Both the position numbers and the translations under genes were made by a program. A DNA stretch of 30,253 nt. Source: Chloroflexota bacterium (GTDB lineage Bacteria > Chloroflexota > UBA11872 > UBA12225). This document shows positions 5,843 to 23,478 of this stretch, piece by piece. Position 1 is the stretch's first letter. Each line of letters opens with the position of its first letter. Location: NCBI GenBank assembly GCA_016199265.1, contig JACQGX010000284.1, forward strand, positions 1-30,253. The letters run 5' to 3'. The notes under the pieces were generated by a model. That model ran no database searches. It was not told the DNA's origin and worked only from the letters and a program-made list of their open reading frames with translations.

Positions 5843-5982
5843 TGGAGTGCAAGGTGCAAAGTGAGACGAGGGGCGCATGACCACCGGTCATGCGCCCCTC
5901 GTGCTTCCAAACCAAAGCCGAGGTAGGACTCACAGGCGTCCTCACTTTGCACTTTGCACTTTGCACTCTGCACTTGGTTTAG
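5843..5982. repeat. Composite of two GTGCAAA-family elements. At 5843-5905, heptamers GTGCAAGGTGCAAAGTGAG plus a perfect 17-bp hairpin ACGAGGGGCGCATGACC/GGTCATGCGCCCCTCGT. At 5906-5982, a complete minus-orientation copy.
   Basis: Starts 1 nt after the TAG stop of the dienelactone hydrolase gene. The second unit ends with (TTTGCAC)x3...CTTGGTTTAG. Confidence 0.85.
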
Positions 5983-6736: not shown

Positions 6737-6805
6737 CTAAACCAAGTGCAAAGTGCAAAATGCAAAGTGAGGCAGCCTGCGCGTTCCACCTTGGCTTTGG
6801 TTTAG
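6737..6805 (+). repeat. GTGCAAA-heptamer element, copy 3 (plus orientation), between the two secreted-protein genes.
   Basis: CTAAACCAAGTGCAAAGTGCAAAATGCAAAGTGAGG...CCTTGGCTTTGGTTTAG. Followed by an AC-rich spacer and the RBS of gene 6838. Confidence 0.9.
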
Positions 6806-8131: not shown

Positions 8132-8677
8132 ATGGACGGTGTCGTGCTCGAGCTCGTACGGATCGGACTGCGCACCGCGCACGCGCTGGCGGCGGTGCTG
8201 TGGGTCGGCGGCAGCCTATTCTTCGCGCTCGCCCTCATCCCAGCCCTGCGGCGCATCGGCGCTACCGCCGAACGGCTCGAGCTCGCGACGGCCGTTGGGC
8301 GCGAGTTCCGCCGGCTCGTGCGCGCCTCGATAGTGATCTTTCTCGTCACGGGGGCGATCCTTGCCTTCGACCGCTTGAGCCGGCCGGGCGTGCCCGCCCT
8401 CTACACGGCACTGCTCGGCGTCAAGATCGCCCTCGCGCTCTGGATGTTCTGGTTGGTGCGCGAGCGTGACGTGCCCGACCGTCCGGCGACGCTTGCCACG
8501 GCGACGGCACCTTCAGAGTCGGGCGCGGCCGCTGCATCCAGCGAAGCAAGCGCCTTGTGGCACCCGTGCATCCGGCGGCAGACGCTCCTGCTCACGCTGG
8601 GAATCGCCGTGTATCTGCTGGCGATCGTGCTCAGGGTGATCTTTGAAGCGGCGCAGGCAGCGCAGCCGCGTGTCTAA
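8132..8677 (+). CDS. CopD-family-like integral membrane protein (4 TM, short form); putative copper-handling membrane protein.
   Basis: TM1 motif RTAHALAAVLWVGGSLFF matches the CopD hallmark Hx6-7WxGG. Four predicted TM helices. TAA stop overlaps the left end of a palindromic repeat element. Confidence 0.45.
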   Translation: MDGVVLELVRIGLRTAHALAAVLWVGGSLFFALALIPALRRIGATAERLELATAVGREFRRLVRASIVIFLVTGAILAFDRLSRPGVPALYTALLGVKIALALWMFWLVRERDVPDRPATLATATAPSESGAAAASSEASALWHPCIRRQTLLLTLGIAVYLLAIVLRVIFEAAQAAQPRV

Positions 8678-8742
8678 ACCAAGTGCAAAATGCAAAGTGC
8701 AAAGTGAGGATCCCTGCGGGTCCCACTGTGGCTTTGGTTTAG
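8674..8742 (+). repeat. GTGCAAA-heptamer element, copy 4. Its first bases CTAAACC supply the TAA stop codon of the CopD-like gene.
   Basis: CTAAACCAAGTGCAAAATGCAAAGTGCAAAGTGAGGATCCCTGCGGGTCCCACTGTGGCTTTGGTTTAG. The interior is 90% identical to copy 1. Confidence 0.9.
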
Positions 8743-8754
8743 GTTTGGTTCAAG

Positions 8755-8796
8755 GTCCGAAGTCCGAAGTCCGAGGTCCAGAGTCGAGGGTCGACT
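8755..8796 (+). repeat. Tandem heptamer array (GTCCGAA)x3 decaying into GTCCAGA/GTCGAGG, immediately after copy 4.
   Basis: ggtccgaagtccgaagtccgaggtccagagtcgagggtcgac read directly. Confidence 0.8.
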
Positions 8797-8843
8797 GCTG
8801 CGTGCCGCCGCTTTGGACGGTGGACGTATGACTGTGGAACCGG

Positions 8844-10610
8844 TCAAGAGGGATCTCGGCGGATCACCCAGGCGCGATACTCGCCGAATCGGCCGGCCGG
8901 AGTGGTGCCGGCCGGGAGATGCGCCGCCACCTGCGCGTGGCGCGAGACGACAACGCCTACGGCCGGCACACCGGCCGGGCTTGGAAAACCGGTGATGCCA
9001 GGCGCCACGATAGTGGGTGCGATCAAGCGTTCGCTGTCGACGAAGTGCACCGGCGCCGCGTAGTACGCGACCTCGCGGTCGGCGGCGACGAGCTCGCCGC
9101 GCGCAGCCACCGAGCGCAGCCACGCCGCCGCCTCGAACTGGCCCGACGAGCCGTAGAAGTAGGTGGTCGACTCGACCGTCGCCGCTTGGCGCGCCGCGGC
9201 TGAGACGTTGGCGCCGAGCAACAACCCGACGGCGAGCGCTCCCGCCCGCGTTGGTCCGGCGAACCGCGCGAGCGCCAGGCAGCCGGCGGCCACCGCGAGC
9301 CAGGCGGCGAGCAGACGGAGGTCGGCGTGCCGGATGAGCGCGTCGGCGCCGGTGGCGGTGCCGGCAGCGAAACCCACCGCGATTCCGGCCGGCAGAAACC
9401 AATTGGTTTTGGCGAAGGACGAATAACGGTTGACGGAGGCTCCACCGACAGAAGCGCCAATTTCGTCCTTCGTCGTTCGGCCTTCGTTAAGAAGGCGGAT
9501 GGCGGTAGGTAAGGCCGCGTCGAGCCACCGCGCTGCCGCAACGCCCGCGACGGCGGCCGCGAGGGGGAGCACGCCGGCGTGGTACTTGGGAAACCCTGCC
9601 GCCATCTTGCTCAGGTAGACCGCCATCGTCACGGCCGTGACGAACAGCAGCGCCGCGGCCGGCTCATCGCGTCGCAGCGCCAGCGGCGCCGCGACGAGCA
9701 GGCCGACCAACAGCGGGTGCAGCCACTGCATGCTCCGCAACGCCGCGACGAGCGTACGCAGCGCCGCAAGCCCCACCCCGGCGGCCGGCCCGGTCGCCGC
9801 GTTCCCCGTCAGGCCGGCCGTGTCCAGCGCCTCGTACCAGACATCACGGAATGGCTGTACAGCGGGCAGGCCGGTGCCCCACGCCACGAGCAGCCACGAG
9901 ACCAATAACACCAGACTGCCGGCGATACACGCGACGGCGAGCCGCCGCGCTTGCGGCCGGCGCCGCTGCAGCGTCAGCCAGAGCACGAGCGCCGCGGCAA
10001 CGATGAGGGGGGTGGTGAGCTTGCACCAGAGAGCAAGGGCGAAGGCGGCGGACAGCGCGGCGCCCGACCTGAGCCGGCGCCCTCCGTCCTTCGTCCTTCG
10101 TCCTTCGTCTCTTCCGGTGCGCAGGGCGAGCCAGACGAAGGCTGCGGTGGCAGGCGCCAGGACGGTGCCGTCGATGTCGAGCAGGAGGGCGCTCTGGATG
10201 GCGTACGGCGACGTCGCCCAGAGGAGCGCCGCGAGGACGCCGGCGCGTGGGCCACCGGCGAACCGGCCGAGCGCCGCCGCGCCAGCCAGCGAGGCCAGAC
10301 CCGCCAGGACACCGAAAGCGCGCAGCGCGGCGTCACCCGCCCCGGCGACGCGCTGCCACGCCGCCAGCGCCAGCAGGTAGCCCGGCGGGTGGTAGAGCGC
10401 GTACTGCAGGCGCAGGCCGTGCTCCGGATTCCAGGGGTAGTCGGCAATGTACCCGCGGTCGTAGAGAAAACTGCCGCCCGCGATTGCCCGCGCGGCTTTG
10501 GCGAAGTCGACTTCGTCGTACGTCAGCGGGCGACCTATCTGTGACAGTGCTAGGACGAGATAGAGCGCCACCGCTGCCAGGAAGACCGCACCGGTGTAGG
10601 GGCGAAGCAT
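8844..10610 (-). CDS. GT-C fold glycosyltransferase of the ArnT / PMT (GT39/GT83) type. Polytopic membrane protein.
   Basis: About 14 hydrophobic helices. N-terminal loop motif YDEVDFAKAARAIAGG (the DE motif of ArnT/PMT_2 enzymes). Carries two in-frame insertions of GGACGAA-heptamer palindromic elements (see repeats). Confidence 0.7.
   Translation of the reverse strand: MLRPYTGAVFLAAVALYLVLALSQIGRPLTYDEVDFAKAARAIAGGSFLYDRGYIADYPWNPEHGLRLQYALYHPPGYLLALAAWQRVAGAGDAALRAFGVLAGLASLAGAAALGRFAGGPRAGVLAALLWATSPYAIQSALLLDIDGTVLAPATAAFVWLALRTGRDEGRRTKDGGRRLRSGAALSAAFALALWCKLTTPLIVAAALVLWLTLQRRRPQARRLAVACIAGSLVLLVSWLLVAWGTGLPAVQPFRDVWYEALDTAGLTGNAATGPAAGVGLAALRTLVAALRSMQWLHPLLVGLLVAAPLALRRDEPAAALLFVTAVTMAVYLSKMAAGFPKYHAGVLPLAAAVAGVAAARWLDAALPTAIRLLNEGRTTKDEIGASVGGASVNRYSSFAKTNWFLPAGIAVGFAAGTATGADALIRHADLRLLAAWLAVAAGCLALARFAGPTRAGALAVGLLLGANVSAAARQAATVESTTYFYGSSGQFEAAAWLRSVAARGELVAADREVAYYAAPVHFVDSERLIAPTIVAPGITGFPSPAGVPAVGVVVSRHAQVAAHLPAGTTPAGRFGEYRAWVIRRDPS
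9411..9492. repeat. GGACGAA-family palindromic element inserted in-frame in the glycosyltransferase gene. Encodes roughly NEGRTTKDEIGASVGGASVNRYSSFA.
   Basis: Arms GGCGAAGGACGAA ... TTCGTCCTTCGTCGTTCGGCCTTCG are inverted repeats. The 82-84-nt length preserves the reading frame of ORF 8844..10610. Confidence 0.75.
10037..10110. repeat. Second, partly degenerate GGACGAA-family element in-frame in the glycosyltransferase gene ((TCCTTCG)x3 arm with a weak GGGCGAAGGCGGCGGAC partner). Encodes ...DEGRRTKDGG....
   Basis: cctccgtccttcgtccttcgtccttcgtc at 10082-10110, with a partial inverted partner at 10037-10053. Confidence 0.6.
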
Positions 10611-19828: not shown

Positions 19829-19858
19829 CGAGGCACCCCTCCCCCCGGGGGGAGGGGT
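19829..19858. promoter_or_regulatory. 30-bp perfect palindrome GGCACCCCTCCCCCC/GGGGGGAGGGGTGCC between divergent genes, immediately upstream of csoR. Candidate CsoR operator, overlapping a TGCTATAGT extended -10-like element.
   Basis: Known CsoR operators are GC-rich pseudo-palindromes with a C-tract/G-tract core. This one sits about 20 nt upstream of the csoR start and 10 nt downstream of TATAGT. Confidence 0.5.
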
Positions 19859-19877
19859 GCCCACGAGAGGGAGCCAT

Positions 19878-20174
19878 ATGCCATCGGCGCAGGGACGAAC
19901 GCAGATTGTGAATCGGTTGAAGAGCGTCGACGGCCATCTGCGCGGCGTGATCAAGATGGTCGAAGAAGACGCTTACTGCATCGACGTGATCCAGCAGTTG
20001 CGCGCCGTCCAGGCCGCGATCAATAGGGTCAACGCACTGCTCTTGGCCGACCACCTCGACACGTGCGTCACGACCGCGATCCGAAGCGACGAGCCGACCG
20101 AGCGCGAGCGTGTCATCGGCGAACTGCTCCGCGTCTTCGAACACGGTGCCGATGCAGCAGGCAGCAGGCAGTAG
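19878..20174 (+). CDS. csoR: CsoR/RcnR-family copper-sensing transcriptional repressor
   Basis: [43 protein letters not shown] matches the CsoR core, including the YC...H...C metal ligands (C..., H..., C in DTC). GAGAGGGAG RBS. Located directly upstream of copA. Confidence 0.85.
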
Positions 20175-20188
20175 GCAGCAGGCAGCGG
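20154..20188 (+). repeat. Tandem heptamer array GCAGCAG GCAGCAG GCAGTAG GCAGCAG GCAGCGG spanning the csoR stop codon and the copA start region.
   Basis: Read directly. The csoR TAG stop is the TAG inside the third unit. Confidence 0.85.
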
Positions 20189-20196
20189 CACGCGAC

Positions 20197-22860
20197 ATGA
20201 AGACACTCGATCACGCGGCACAGATGAACACCGCGACGGATACGGGCCAGCGCCAGACCGGCGCGAACGGCGCCGCCGAGCGTACAGCAGTCAGCGGCAG
20301 CGCCGCGCCGCCGGCGGCCGCCGAGCTTACCTTCCCCGTCACCGGCATGACGTGCGCCTCGTGCGTCCGGCGCATCGAACGCTCGCTCTCCAAGGTCGAA
20401 GGCGTTGTCGAGGCCAACGTGAACCTCGCCACCGAGCAGGCGACGGTTCGTTACGATCCCAGCGCCCCGACGCTCGCCGAGGCGCCGCCGATGGCCGTCT
20501 TCCGCGCCGCCGTCGAGCGCGCAGGATACGGCGTCCGTGAGACCGAGCCGGCCTCGCCCGCAGCGGGGGCGGCCATGATCGAAAGCTCGGAAGCGCGCGC
20601 GGCCGCGGACGAGCGGCGTGAGACCAGGACGGTGTTGGCCAAGACCGGCCTCTCGCTTGGCGTCGCCGCGATCATCATGGGGCTGATGTTTTTGCCGGCT
20701 CGCCTGATCGGCGTGCCGGCACTGCCGTGGAGCATGGAGCTGCTCAACTGGCTGTTCTTGGTCCTGGCGACGCCGGTGCAGTTCTGGGCCGGTTGGGATT
20801 TCTACCGCGCGACGTGGGCGGCCGCGAAACACGGCGCGACGAATATGAACACGCTCGTCGCCGTCGGCACGAGCGCCGCCTACGTCTACAGCGCCTTCGC
20901 CACATTCTTTCCGCAGGTGCTGGCCGGTGCCGGGATCATGCCCGAGACGTACTTCGACAGCTCGACGATCATCGTCGGCTTGATCCTGCTCGGTCGCTAC
21001 CTCGAGCATCGCGCGCGCGGCCAGACGAGCGCCGCGATCAAGAAGCTGATCGGGCTGCAACCCAAGACGGCCCAGGTGATCCGCAACGGCGAAGAACACG
21101 ACGTGCCGGTCGAAATGGTACAGATCGAGGACATTGTCCGCGTGCGCCCGGGCGAGAAGATCCCCGTCGACGGCGTCGTGCTCGAGGGCCGCTCGGCGGT
21201 CGACGAGAGTATGCTGACCGGCGAAAGCCTGCCGGTAGAGAAGGGGCCGGGCGATCAGGTGATCGGCGCCACGCTCAACGCCACCGGTGCGTTCACGTTC
21301 CGCGCGACACGCGTCGGTACCGACACGACGCTCGCGCAGATCGTGAAGCTGGTGCAGGAGGCGCAGGGCTCCAAAGCACCGATCCAGCGCCTCGCCGACC
21401 TGATCTCGTCGTACTTCGTACCGGTCGTTCTCGTCGTGTCCGCGTTCACGTTCGGCGTCTGGTACGTTTTCGGTCCGGAGCCGCAAGTCACCTTCGCGCT
21501 CACCACCTTCATCGCCGTCCTTATCATCGCCTGCCCGTGCGCGATGGGCCTGGCGACGCCCACCGCCATCATGGTCGGCACCGGCCAGGGCGCCGAGCAC
21601 GGCATCCTCATCCGCGGCGGCGAGGCGCTCGAGCAGGCGCACAAGGTGCGCGCGATCGTCCTCGACAAGACGGGGACGCTGACGCAGGGCAAACCGGCGC
21701 TGACGGACGTCAACTCAGTCCAAAGTCCAAAGTCCAAAGTCCAAAGTAATGGGCCATCCGGCTGGGGACTGGGGACCGGGGACCGGGGACTGCTGCGCCT
21801 CGTCGCCGCTGCCGAGCGGAACTCGGAGCATCCGGTGGCGGCGGCGATTGTGGAGGGGGCGCGGGCGCGCGGCGTCGAGCTTGTGGAGGCGGAACGATTC
21901 GAGTCGGTGACGGGGCGGGGCGTGGCTGCCGTCGTCGATGGGCATTTCGTGCTCGCGGGCAACCAGGCGCTCCTGGCCGATTACAGCGTCTCACTCGACG
22001 GGCTTGAGACGCAGGTAGCGGCGCTCGCACGGGAGGGCAAGACGCCGATCTACGTCGCCGTTGACGGCGCGGCGGCGGGCGTGCTGGCGGTCGCCGATAC
22101 GCTCAAGCCGACGTCGCCGCAGGCGGTGGCGCAGCTCGAAGCGCTCGGGCTCGAGGTCTGGATGCTCACCGGCGATAACCGGGCGACCGCCGAGGCGATC
22201 GCGCGGCAGGCCGGGATCGTACCCGAGCGCGTGCTCGCCGAGGTACTGCCCGATCAGAAGGCGGCGCAGGTCAAGGCGCTCCAAGCGCGCGGCCTGCCGA
22301 CCGCCATGGTCGGCGACGGCATCAACGACGCGCCGGCGCTGGCGCAGGCCGATCTGGGGATCGCCATCGGCACGGGGACGGATGTCGCCATGGAGGCGTC
22401 CGATGTCACGCTCGTCGGCGGCGATCTGCGGGGCGTCGTCGCGGCGATCGCCCTGTCGCGCCGGACGATCGACGTCATCCGCCAGAACCTGTTCTGGGCG
22501 TTCGCCTACAACGTCCTGCTCATCCCCGTCGCGATGGGCGCGCTCTACCCGTTTTTTGGCATGCTGCTGAACCCGGGATTGGCGGCCGGCGCGATGGCGC
22601 TCTCGAGCGTGTCGGTCGTTACCAACTCGCTCCGGCTCCGTGGCTTCCGGGTGCCGGATGATCCGCGCGATATTACACACCCACCGCTCGGCGCCCGCCT
22701 GCGCGAGTGGAGCTATCTCGCCGGAATCGCGGCCATCGCGCTCGCGCTCGGCGCGGCCATCATGTGGTGGTCGGCCGGCCGCGGCCCGGCGGACCAGGGC
22801 GAGCAGCAAATGGCGACAACTCAGGCCGATTCAACGCAACACAAAGGAGGCACACAATGA
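20197..22860 (+). CDS. copA: Copper-translocating P1B-type ATPase. Track ORF starts at GTG 20110; an ATG at 20152 is also possible.
   Basis: N-terminal HMA domain [13 protein letters not shown] motif [20 protein letters not shown] phosphorylation site. GDGINDAP hinge. Contains a 26-aa in-frame heptamer-repeat insertion after [16 protein letters not shown]. Confidence 0.95.
21718..21791 (+). repeat. Two adjacent tandem heptamer arrays inside the copA coding sequence: (GTCCAAA)x4 then (GGGGACY)x4. In-frame; encodes [25 protein letters not shown].
   Basis: Located right after the [16 protein letters not shown] phosphorylation loop. The equivalent linker in characterised CopA proteins is about 15 aa shorter. 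Confidence 0.85.
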
Positions 22861-23078
22861 GCAAGGTGGTTCTAGACGTTCCCGAGATCTCGTGCGCGCA
22901 CTGCTCGCAGGCGATCACGCAGGCGCTGCAGCCGCAGGCAGGCGTCGAGAAGGTACGAGTCGACGTGCCGAGCCGGAAGGTCTATCTCGACTACGACGAG
23001 AACACGATCTCCATCGACAAGGTGAAGGCGCTCCTCGCCGAGGAGGAGTATCCCGTCGCCAACATCAGCAACGCCTAA
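22857..23078 (+). CDS. copZ: Copper chaperone, heavy-metal-associated (HMA) domain protein (73 aa).
   Basis: ATGA start/stop overlap with copA. AAAGGAGG RBS. Metal-binding motif [11 protein letters not shown]. Strong hairpin terminator follows. Confidence 0.8.
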
Positions 23079-23442: not shown

Positions 23443-23443
23443 G

Positions 23444-23478
23444 GCAGTAGGCAGTAAGCAGTAGCCGGTGGGCAGTTG
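23444..23478 (+). repeat. Tandem heptamer array GCAGTAG GCAGTAA GCAGTAG CCGGTGG GCAGTTG, starting 2 nt after the cbtB-like stop codon. Same GCAGYAG family as 20154-20188.
   Basis: Read directly. Confidence 0.8.

Follow-up and report, generated by a model that had tools for sequence, protein, structure and literature searches.

The window studied here is 30,253 nt long (67.6% GC) and is one contig of a Chloroflexota metagenome-assembled genome (MAG); these 30 kb are the part of the genome that we have seen. Its copA gene, which encodes a Cu(I)-translocating P1B-type ATPase, contains two short arrays of heptanucleotide repeats at a site where CopA usually has a 10-residue linker. This insert is probably an in-frame member of a dispersed class of heptanucleotide arrays of about four units, tolerated in a solvent-exposed loop of the nucleotide-binding domain (N-domain) whose length is unconstrained. 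We observed that such arrays exist and exceed chance in the window, that they are dispersed, that they recur in the same loop of other CopA proteins, that their units change in concert, and that forms with and without arrays occur as presence/absence alleles. Heptanucleotide arrays are a recognized, poorly understood class. The copA insert belongs to that class and is ordinary for it.

Two Heptamer Arrays Lie in Frame in copA

The gene, the insert and the motifs on either side of it are as follows.

20197–22860 (+): copA, Cu(I)-translocating P1B-type ATPase, 887 aa (Pfam, motifs, PDB matches)
21664–21678 (+): DKTGT phosphorylation motif, D490 (sequence)
21712–21789 (+): 26 codons, N506–G531, in place of the usual 10-residue N-domain hairpin linker, net +16 aa (homologue alignment)
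21717–21747 (+): 5′ array, (AGTCCAA)x4.4, equivalent to a (GTCCAAA)n unit (Tandem Repeats Finder (TRF), 100% matches, score 62)
~21748–21761 (+): 14-nt non-repeat spacer GTAATGGGCCATCC and hairpin loop between the arrays (sequence, PDB/HMMER alignment)
21762–21792 (+): 3′ array, (CTGGGGA)x4.4, equivalent to GGGGACT GGGGACC GGGGACC GGGGAC, peptide WGLGTGDRG (TRF, 91% matches, score 48)
21823–21834 (+): SEHP nucleotide-binding motif of the N-domain, S543–P546 (sequence, PDB alignment)

Pfam assigns HMA (PF00403, E = 5e-17), E1-E2_ATPase and HAD Hydrolase domains to the copA product, and the N-terminal HMA domain contains a CxxC motif. The signature motifs of a P1B Cu(I)-ATPase, which start at residues 50 (GMTCASC), 341 (TGES), 446 (CPC), 490 (DKTGT), 543 (SEHP) and 706 (GDGINDAP), are all intact and lie in a single frame that runs across the insert. 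The top PDB matches are the CopA structures 3J08, 3RFU and 3A1C. The NCBI protein from this MAG (P0001, 902 aa) is a 100% match whose start is at 20152, 15 codons 5′ of the ATG at 20197.

TRF found both arrays, each 31 nt long and in frame, at essentially the positions where the original prediction had put them. That prediction had also estimated that the linker is about 15 aa longer than usual, and we measured +16 aa (26 residues vs. the usual 10). The spacing from the aspartate of DKTGT to SEHP is 53 aa in the window CopA vs. a modal 37 aa, the latter being found in 78 of the 120 closest proteins and at most of 80 genome loci. The arrays cover residues 507–532 of 887, about 57% of the way into the open reading frame (ORF), in a cytoplasmic domain. 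The GC content of the 5′ array is 43%, compared with 68% for the genome. The two arrays had been described as back-to-back, but the 14-nt non-repeat spacer separates them; it encodes N-G, which HMMER aligns to the conserved native NG turn.

The Insert Is Predicted to Be a Disordered Surface Loop

The insert had been assigned to a linker of the P-domain. Alignment with the Archaeoglobus fulgidus CopA structures (3J08/3A1C) instead puts it between VTDL and the ELLRL..SEHP helix (ELLRLAAIAERRSEHP). By this alignment and by an AlphaFold model of the window CopA, the site is the first β-hairpin/loop of the nucleotide-binding N-domain, between the VTDV strand and the ELLRL...SEHP helix. The AlphaFold model, a check that had been suggested with the original prediction, used an alignment of 40 sequences and has a mean predicted local distance difference test (pLDDT) score of 76.7. 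It places a confident strand at residues 501–507 and a confident helix at residues 529–540, with the insert modeled as coil between them and pLDDT below 50 at residues 512–523. As modeled, the insert is a disordered surface loop, and its peptide is hydrophilic. The copA gene is intact, and the extra loop is most likely harmless.

CopA Relatives Carry Unrelated Heptamer Arrays at the Same Site

Our comparison set was the 119 other closest CopA proteins, which have 58–66% identity to the window CopA and come mostly from Chloroflexota and Thermomicrobiales. A genome scan and a search of 5.8 billion proteins found none above ~66% identity to the window CopA except the source record. At exactly the site of the insert, 22 of the 119 proteins have +4 to +50 aa, and the inserted peptides have no common sequence. 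These 22 homologues, together with the coil of pLDDT below 50 in the model, support the fallback explanation offered in the original prediction, which was a tolerated low-complexity insertion in a cytoplasmic domain. The same prediction had named a linker length normal for the clade as a finding that would count against it. This is borne out in part, as long linkers at this site are common in the clade.

We fetched the insert DNA for seven relatives; the insert loci are named L081–L087, L090 and L211. Every CopA insert examined as DNA proved to be made of heptamer arrays (octamer in two cases) with unrelated units. The possibility that relatives would carry the segment without repeat structure in their DNA was therefore not borne out, as their inserts are heptamer arrays too. 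The arrays are composed as follows.

L081 copA insert: (CACTCAG)4.6 + (CAYTCCG)n
L083 copA insert: (AGTCGGC)4.4 + (CTACGGA)3.6 + (CTCACGA)4.1
L084 copA insert: (ACTACGG)4.4
L085 copA insert: (GGCAGTCG)3.6 + (GGAGTCG)4.7 + (CTGCCGC)2.9
L086 copA insert: (AATTACG)3.9 + (CATTCCG)4.9
L087 copA insert: (AGTCGGGC)4.8 + (CTCAGCA)4.4

Some units are common to different genomes: CACTCAG occurs in L081 and L087, CATTCCG in L081 and L086, and AATTACG in copA of L086 and in an intergenic inverted pair of L081. In a DNA-level scan, 19 of the 21 arrays within these ATPase genes lay 16–66 residues past DKTGT, one of them in a paralogous ATPase of L085. The remaining two are an inverted pair, (GACGGTG)2.7 + (ACCGTCC)3.9, in frame at 1327–1406 of L086. 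This pair lies in the linker that joins the second HMA domain to the membrane part, the only other place in the copA genes where an array was found. In most relatives the native linker is replaced, not interrupted, and the first array of L083 starts within codons that match the common linker start (ATA GTC GGC = IVG).

Insert carriers are polyphyletic on a neighbor-joining tree of the core sequence. In the main clade, which includes the window CopA, carriers are interleaved with "+2" proteins (VLADGFGGSRDD); carriers outside that clade are P0045/P0071, P0086, P0016/21 and P0068. Insert-less CopA loci amounting to ~650 kb contain 2 heptamer arrays. Around copA in the window, L081, L085 and L086, heptamer arrays are dense.

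The paralogous P-type ATPase of L085 (5546–8245) is beside copA, and no CPC motif was found in it. Its insert follows DKTGT...TDV and consists of AGTCGGC-like and (CGGCAGA)n arrays. The window CopA (887 aa) is shorter than many of its closest homologues, which reach 1130–1190 aa through another HMA domain and ~250 aa of extra C-terminal sequence with faint YtkA/cupredoxin matches in Pfam; it has neither.

Arrays Change in Concert and Behave as Old Alleles

The copA genes of the syntenic loci L083, L088 and L090 have ~89–90% DNA identity. The linker of L088 is ordinary and non-repetitive, and the whole linker of L083 and L090 is three arrays. Between L083 and L090, two arrays have undergone a concerted change of all their units (GGACTAC to GGACCAC, and CTCACGA to CGCACGA), with a copy number of ~4 in both. 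A single protein cluster at 90% identity or above contains both forms, with arrays in P0026 and P0135 (1172 aa) and an ordinary linker in P0136 and P0137 (1145 aa). P0135 and P0137 are 98% identical as proteins, and their differences are concentrated around the insert. When L211 and L212 are compared as DNA, the 200-nt interval that contains the insert has 25 mismatches vs. 0–3 in most other intervals, and diverged flanks reach ~30 nt 5′ and ~120 nt 3′ of the insert. Since divergence is concentrated at the insert and its flanks, the array and ordinary-linker forms behave as old alleles swapped by recombination and not as the result of a fresh, clean insertion. The L211 and L212 strains, which are ~99% identical, also differ at ~7400–7800 of L211, a rearranged intergenic stretch with many indels. 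Within this stretch L212 has an extra 130-aa ORF, between a 76-aa gene and a cold-shock gene.

It had been pointed out that a change of one unit would shift the frame of copA, and the arithmetic is correct. In three insert-bearing clusters at 90% identity or above (3, 5 and 3 full-length members; 11 total), the insert length was invariant. In a fourth cluster, the arrays of P0051 and P0140 are rearranged relative to each other, and the peptides suggest compensated frameshifts. No out-of-frame allele was found among the insert-bearing clusters of homologues examined.

Several candidate variants were rejected. P0139 (631 aa) starts just past the 5′ array and could be taken for a frameshifted allele, but its contig merely begins there. 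Cluster members of 520 and 530 aa are C-terminal fragments, not variant alleles. The members of the P0002 cluster that are 45–52 aa long are unrelated small proteins and not CopA variants. These last, seven unrelated proteins of that size among P0121–P0128 (MRLVFKNGPIEIWEVTE...), were placed in the cluster of a 1159-aa CopA (P0002) at 90% identity or above, an apparent clustering oddity.

Period 7 Is the Sole Enriched Repeat Period in the Window

TRF reported ~12 period-7 arrays across the 30-kb window, most of them intergenic. Exact period-7 arrays of at least three units numbered 5, vs. 0.0 in 50 dinucleotide shuffles, and each of the other periods from 4 to 12 yielded 0–1. Period 7 is the sole enriched tandem-repeat period in the window. 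Units are also reused, with GGACGAA and CAAAGTG at four sites each. The GGACGAA sites are at 137–158, inverted at 196–239, and at two places in frame in a PMT_2 gene. The GTCCAAA unit of the copA 5′ array was found once in the window, in copA, plus a GTCCGAA variant at 8755.

8844–10610 (−): PMT_2-family membrane glycosyltransferase ORF, hosting two in-frame (GGACGAA)n arrays in predicted loops (Pfam, TRF)
10081–10114 (−): in-frame (GGACGAA)n in the PMT_2 gene, peptide RDEGRRTKDGGRR (TRF)
9462–9487 (−): second, degenerate in-frame (GGACGAA)n in the PMT_2 gene, peptide NEGRTTKDE (TRF)
2243–2318 (−), 5905–5980 (−), 6737–6800 (+) and 8676–8742 (+): copies of an element with terminal inverted repeats (TIRs) (sequence)

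The TIR element is ~75 nt long, is bounded by CTAAACCAA/TTGGTTTAG, and has an internal (GTGCAAA)n array (the CAAAGTG unit). All four copies are intergenic. Two copies have 4 units and two have 3, the difference being exactly one GTGCAAA heptamer, so single-unit slippage does happen in this genome. An Rfam scan of the whole window, TIR element included, found no known RNA family.

Arrays in this genome are often inverted pairs. At 130–245 (−), just 3′ of the stop of the ORF at 240–1325 (−), (GGACGAA)3 pairs with (TTCGTCC)n in a perfect stem of 21 bp (−47.5 kcal/mol, z = −7.9). This stem resembles a terminator or an mRNA-stabilizing hairpin, although it is without a U-tract.

Similar Arrays Are Found in Housekeeping Genes in Metagenomes

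We scanned metagenome DNA for (GTCCAAA)n of at least three units. At least 120 stretches matched, and we read 80 of the loci, which range from 35 to 69% GC. Among the matches listed, the copy number rounds to 4, the mode, in 41 of 84 arrays. In many cases a (TTTGGAC)n array comes next, and the two fold together as near-perfect hairpins (−45 to −68 kcal/mol). Where flanks were adequate, 33 of 62 array instances sit in ORFs that extend at least 60 codons on both sides, vs. 67% of random sites. Of those 33 in-ORF arrays, 28 are in the sense orientation, giving SKVQSPK. Hosts verified by Pfam are UvrA, PurL and XseA; others, identified by eye only, are LeuRS, CstA, a DnaE-type polymerase, CobN and PMT-type glycosyltransferases. 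In the XseA and DnaE-type polymerase ORFs both arms are in frame (...TLDFGPGTLD), the same layout as in the window CopA. The composite found in copA, searched for as (GTCCAAA)n-N8-38-(GGGGACY)n, had 0 matches in the metagenome contigs and was absent from the fetched loci. In-frame heptamer arrays in housekeeping genes appear to be much commoner in environmental bacteria than the literature suggests. Glycosyltransferases of PMT/TPR type host (GTCCAAA)n in metagenome contigs L094, L095 and L140.

Predicted Nucleic-Acid Structure of the copA Arrays

In the copA pair, GUCC of the 5′ array faces GGAC of the 3′ array, so that the two arms are complementary in register. The predicted pairing consists of helices of 4–6 bp with 3x3 internal loops every 7 nt. 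As RNA, the hairpin has z = −2.9 on the sense strand and −3.05 on the antisense strand for an 84-nt core, and −2.0 for 101 nt. With DNA parameters it was not significant (z = −0.49). The 3′ array is also a canonical G4-N3 quadruplex motif on the sense strand. When G-quadruplexes (G4s) were enabled in ViennaRNA, a four-layer RNA G4 was predicted at 21762–21792 (−30.6 kcal/mol). The minimum free energy was −48.9 kcal/mol with the G4 allowed vs. −42.0 kcal/mol for the hairpin, so the predicted G4 would outcompete the hairpin.

Relation to Known Heptanucleotide Repeats

Heptamer repeats of cyanobacteria have reportedly been named short tandemly repeated repetitive (STRR) sequences since the work of Mazel et al. 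in 1990. Heptanucleotide arrays have been recorded for decades, usually as non-coding sequence, and their origin and their preference for about four units are unexplained.

Gmet_H4 of Geobacter metallireducens is four tandem heptanucleotides (GGGACCG/GGACCGG) in 49 copies within and between genes (Aklujkar et al. 2009, PMC2700814). When rotated, its unit reads GGGGACC, as in the window 3′ array, and both have four copies. Gmet_H4 comes from another phylum and was described as a set of putative regulatory RNA elements, and that paper does not deal with reading frame, the structure of host proteins or paired arrays. The copA insert also differs from Gmet_H4 in pairing its G-rich array with an arm that is A-rich, (GTCCAAA)4. 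In Nostoc PCC 7120, GGGGA(C/T)T repeats are dispersed genome-wide with a marked preference for four units, and the repeats of Xanthomonas have a GGGAATC unit (Rehm et al. 2015, PMC4692102). The unit GGGGACY is identical in Nostoc and in the window 3′ array, and both have about four units. However, the window array occupies the sense strand midway through an intact ORF, whereas the same study found that G-rich heptamer repeats are over-represented in non-coding DNA and, within ORFs, under-represented on the coding strand.

TAACTGA direct repeats of Beggiatoaceae, cyanobacteria and Bacteroidetes form arrays of 2–6 copies with a sporadic distribution, and their stop-free orientations are translatable within ORFs (MacGregor 2015, PMC4679880). 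They resemble the present arrays in being short, dispersed and phylogenetically sporadic, but they are overwhelmingly intergenic, 5′ of start codons, and favor one unit, whereas we found many units and a recurrent protein loop. Mrazek et al. 2007, as cited in MacGregor 2015, identified heptanucleotides as the most abundant long simple sequence repeats (SSRs) in many genomes and suggested that the polymerase slips on 7-nt units. The copA arrays fit this dispersed class in their 7-nt units, their ~4 copies, the many arrays in the window, the reuse of units and the predicted G4. Our literature search found nothing on heptamer arrays in Chloroflexota or on the sequences GTCCAAAGTCCAAA, TTTGGACTTTGGAC and SPKSKVQ.

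What the present data add is that heptamer arrays are common in real genes, where they are always in frame and mostly oriented so that the encoded peptide is hydrophilic, and that the P1B-ATPase loop is a recurrent array host with strain-level allelic dimorphism and concerted unit replacement. The CopA N-domain loop is a convenient natural system for studying the birth, homogenization and loss of arrays, and it also suits the question of how much low-complexity sequence a protein loop can absorb. On the practical side, such inserts break assemblies, inflate apparent protein divergence and can mislead annotation.

Origin of the Insert

We propose that replication slippage or template switching on 7-nt units is what creates the arrays and alters them. 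The numbers 7 and 3 are coprime, so an array gives an identical seven-codon cycle in all three frames, and a stop-free unit such as GTCCAAA or GGGGACY can never yield an internal stop. The frame is kept as long as the net length is divisible by three, so selection need only remove net frameshifts. Selection would remove these along with hydrophobic orientations, and arrays would remain in loops where they are of no consequence. Insert-bearing alleles may then pass between related genomes by homologous recombination, and the insert would have no specific function at the protein level.

Several points weigh against this explanation. Neutrality and stability at the window locus are extrapolated from other lineages, of which the nearest relative has ~66% identity. 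One loop is used repeatedly, even in a paralogue, which might point to a targeting mechanism or to some benefit beyond simple tolerance. Given the findings of Rehm et al. (PMC4692102), a sense-strand (GGGGACY)4 in an ORF is an unusual placement. Local slippage alone does not obviously explain why a few units are reused across loci and genomes, and the slippage origin of the arrays is itself a proposal. In L083, L084, L090 and L211, finally, arrays occur only inside the copA insert (loci of 10–20 kb). The idea that copA inserts track the heptamer richness of the whole genome has been withdrawn in part; since the arrays of these four loci are confined to copA, a heptamer-rich genome is not a precondition for the insert. 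The insert allele probably arrived in this group by recombination. Either the allele must have come by recombination or horizontal gene transfer, or the arrays must be maintained for some reason.

The original prediction suggested that copA is a potential contingency or phase-variation locus in which changes in copy number would frameshift the gene. Both arrays are inside the ORF, their unit length (7) is not divisible by 3, the non-coding arrays of this genome show single-unit differences, the arrays of homologues turn over rapidly, and the P0051 and P0140 inserts differ in a way that suggests compensated frameshifts. A natural in-ORF heptanucleotide switch is also known. The phage-borne O-acetyltransferase gene neuO of E. 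coli K1 has (AAGACTC)n at its 5′ end with 3–53 units, 20 being the commonest; 66% of genomes have it out of frame, and plus-or-minus-one subpopulations are measurable (PMC13001214). As in copA, this is a 7-nt repeat in coding sequence that allows a full-length product only in frame and is translated as a heptad peptide. The copA arrays, however, have ~4 units in the middle of the gene for a metal pump, whereas neuO is a surface-modification gene with a 5′ repeat. Phase-variable SSRs are enriched near N-termini (Lin and Kussell), and the copA arrays are 57% into the ORF of a gene that is not a surface or host-interaction gene. The 11 full-length members of three close clusters included no length-variant or out-of-frame alleles, similar arrays occur in UvrA, PurL and XseA, where switching off would be harmful, and heptamer arrays are found genome-wide, mostly between genes, and are not specific to copA. 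With short mid-gene tracts, no out-of-frame allele in relatives and dispersed arrays, the evidence does not support phase variation or show that the insert acts as an on/off switch, and we regard a contingency locus as improbable. Very doubtful, too, is the idea that a G4 or hairpin is functional and is kept for slowing or pausing either transcription or translation between the segments of the P- and N-domains, or for an effect on mRNA stability. It would fit the four-layer G4 that is predicted to outcompete the hairpin at −30.6 kcal/mol, the behavior of (GGGGACT)4 oligonucleotides, which form G4s in vitro with T1/2 >95 °C in KCl (PMC4692102), and the four-unit preference, which matches the requirement of a G4. 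Most relatives' inserts, however, are not G-rich and cannot form a G4 (CACTCAG, AATTACG, CATTCCG, GACTACG), the non-G4 unit GTCCAAA prefers four units as well, and the structure is not conserved across homologues.

A discrete mobile palindromic element would account for the arrays and spacer as one hairpin cassette, similar to a miniature inverted-repeat transposable element (MITE) or a Rickettsia palindromic element (RPE), that was inserted by an event of the transposition type, in frame by chance, and then filtered by selection. The arms are complementary in register (RNA z = −2.9 and −3.05), near-perfect (GTCCAAA)n/(TTTGGAC)n hairpins are found in ORFs of unrelated genes, and the window holds a true four-copy TIR element with a heptamer array. 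RPEs set the precedent: they are families of ~150-bp palindromic elements in frame in housekeeping genes, with conserved sequence and peptide (review PMC10969869), and the hairpins in UvrA, XseA and DnaE-like ORFs likewise add an in-frame peptide. The window elements, however, are 30–80 nt of tandem 7-mers whose units vary by locus and genome. The copA composite was not found again in the metagenome collection or fetched loci, and its borders have no TIRs or target-site duplication. The same-site arrays of L081, L083 and L087 are not complementary pairs, the L083 array begins in the linker-start codons, the native linker is replaced in most relatives, and hairpin stability at the DNA level is not significant. 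A mobile cassette is therefore unlikely. A different proposal is that the arrays are not passive products of slippage but self-propagating, coding-compatible repeat cassettes that colonize permissive loops of housekeeping proteins across phyla, are homogenized in concert and recombine between alleles. They would be a form of RPE-like selfish DNA with a hypothetical generating activity and a preference for the P1B N-domain hairpin, where the coding sequence of T-D-V (ACSGACGTS) possibly seeds or targets array formation. This has a real chance of being correct, but it is not the explanation that we expect to hold. An assembly or sequencing artefact is barely credible. The source is a MAG contig, and one related contig (P0139) breaks exactly within such an array. 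Against this, the 31-nt arrays are shorter than a read, the insert is in frame with an ORF that continues through all downstream motifs, and analogous inserts at the same site occur in >20 independent assemblies (JGI, ENA, NCBI, Logan). Two further origins, a transposon footprint of accumulated 7-bp target-site duplications and a telomerase-like reverse transcriptase, were dropped because nothing in the window or the loci supports them.

Neighboring Genes and Minor Array Sites

The gene arrangement at the locus is csoR-copA-copZ.

19857–20174 (+): csoR-family copper-sensing repressor, upstream operon gene (Pfam Trns_repr_metal)
22857–23078 (+): copZ-like HMA metallochaperone, downstream of copA (Pfam HMA)

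A (GCAGCAG/GCAGTAG)x5.4 array at 20154–20190 makes up the last csoR codons (DAAGSRQ) and the TAG stop, and it abuts the copA start. The ATG that NCBI uses as the start of copA (20152) falls in this csoR-end (GCAGCAG) array. Heptamer arrays also occur in the csoR-copA spacer or its vicinity in L085 (1805) and L086 (830). On the other side of copA, 3′ of the copZ-like gene, 23443–23476 is a degenerate intergenic (GGCAGTA)x4.9 array with a unit related to that of the csoR-end array. Finally, 8745–8830 contains (GTCCGAA)x3.6, a GTCGAGGGTCGAC mini-hairpin and then TTTGGACGGTGGAC, which together form an imperfect inverted heptamer pair (z = −2.4). This pair adjoins the fourth copy of the TIR element, and its unit is one base off the copA 5′ unit.

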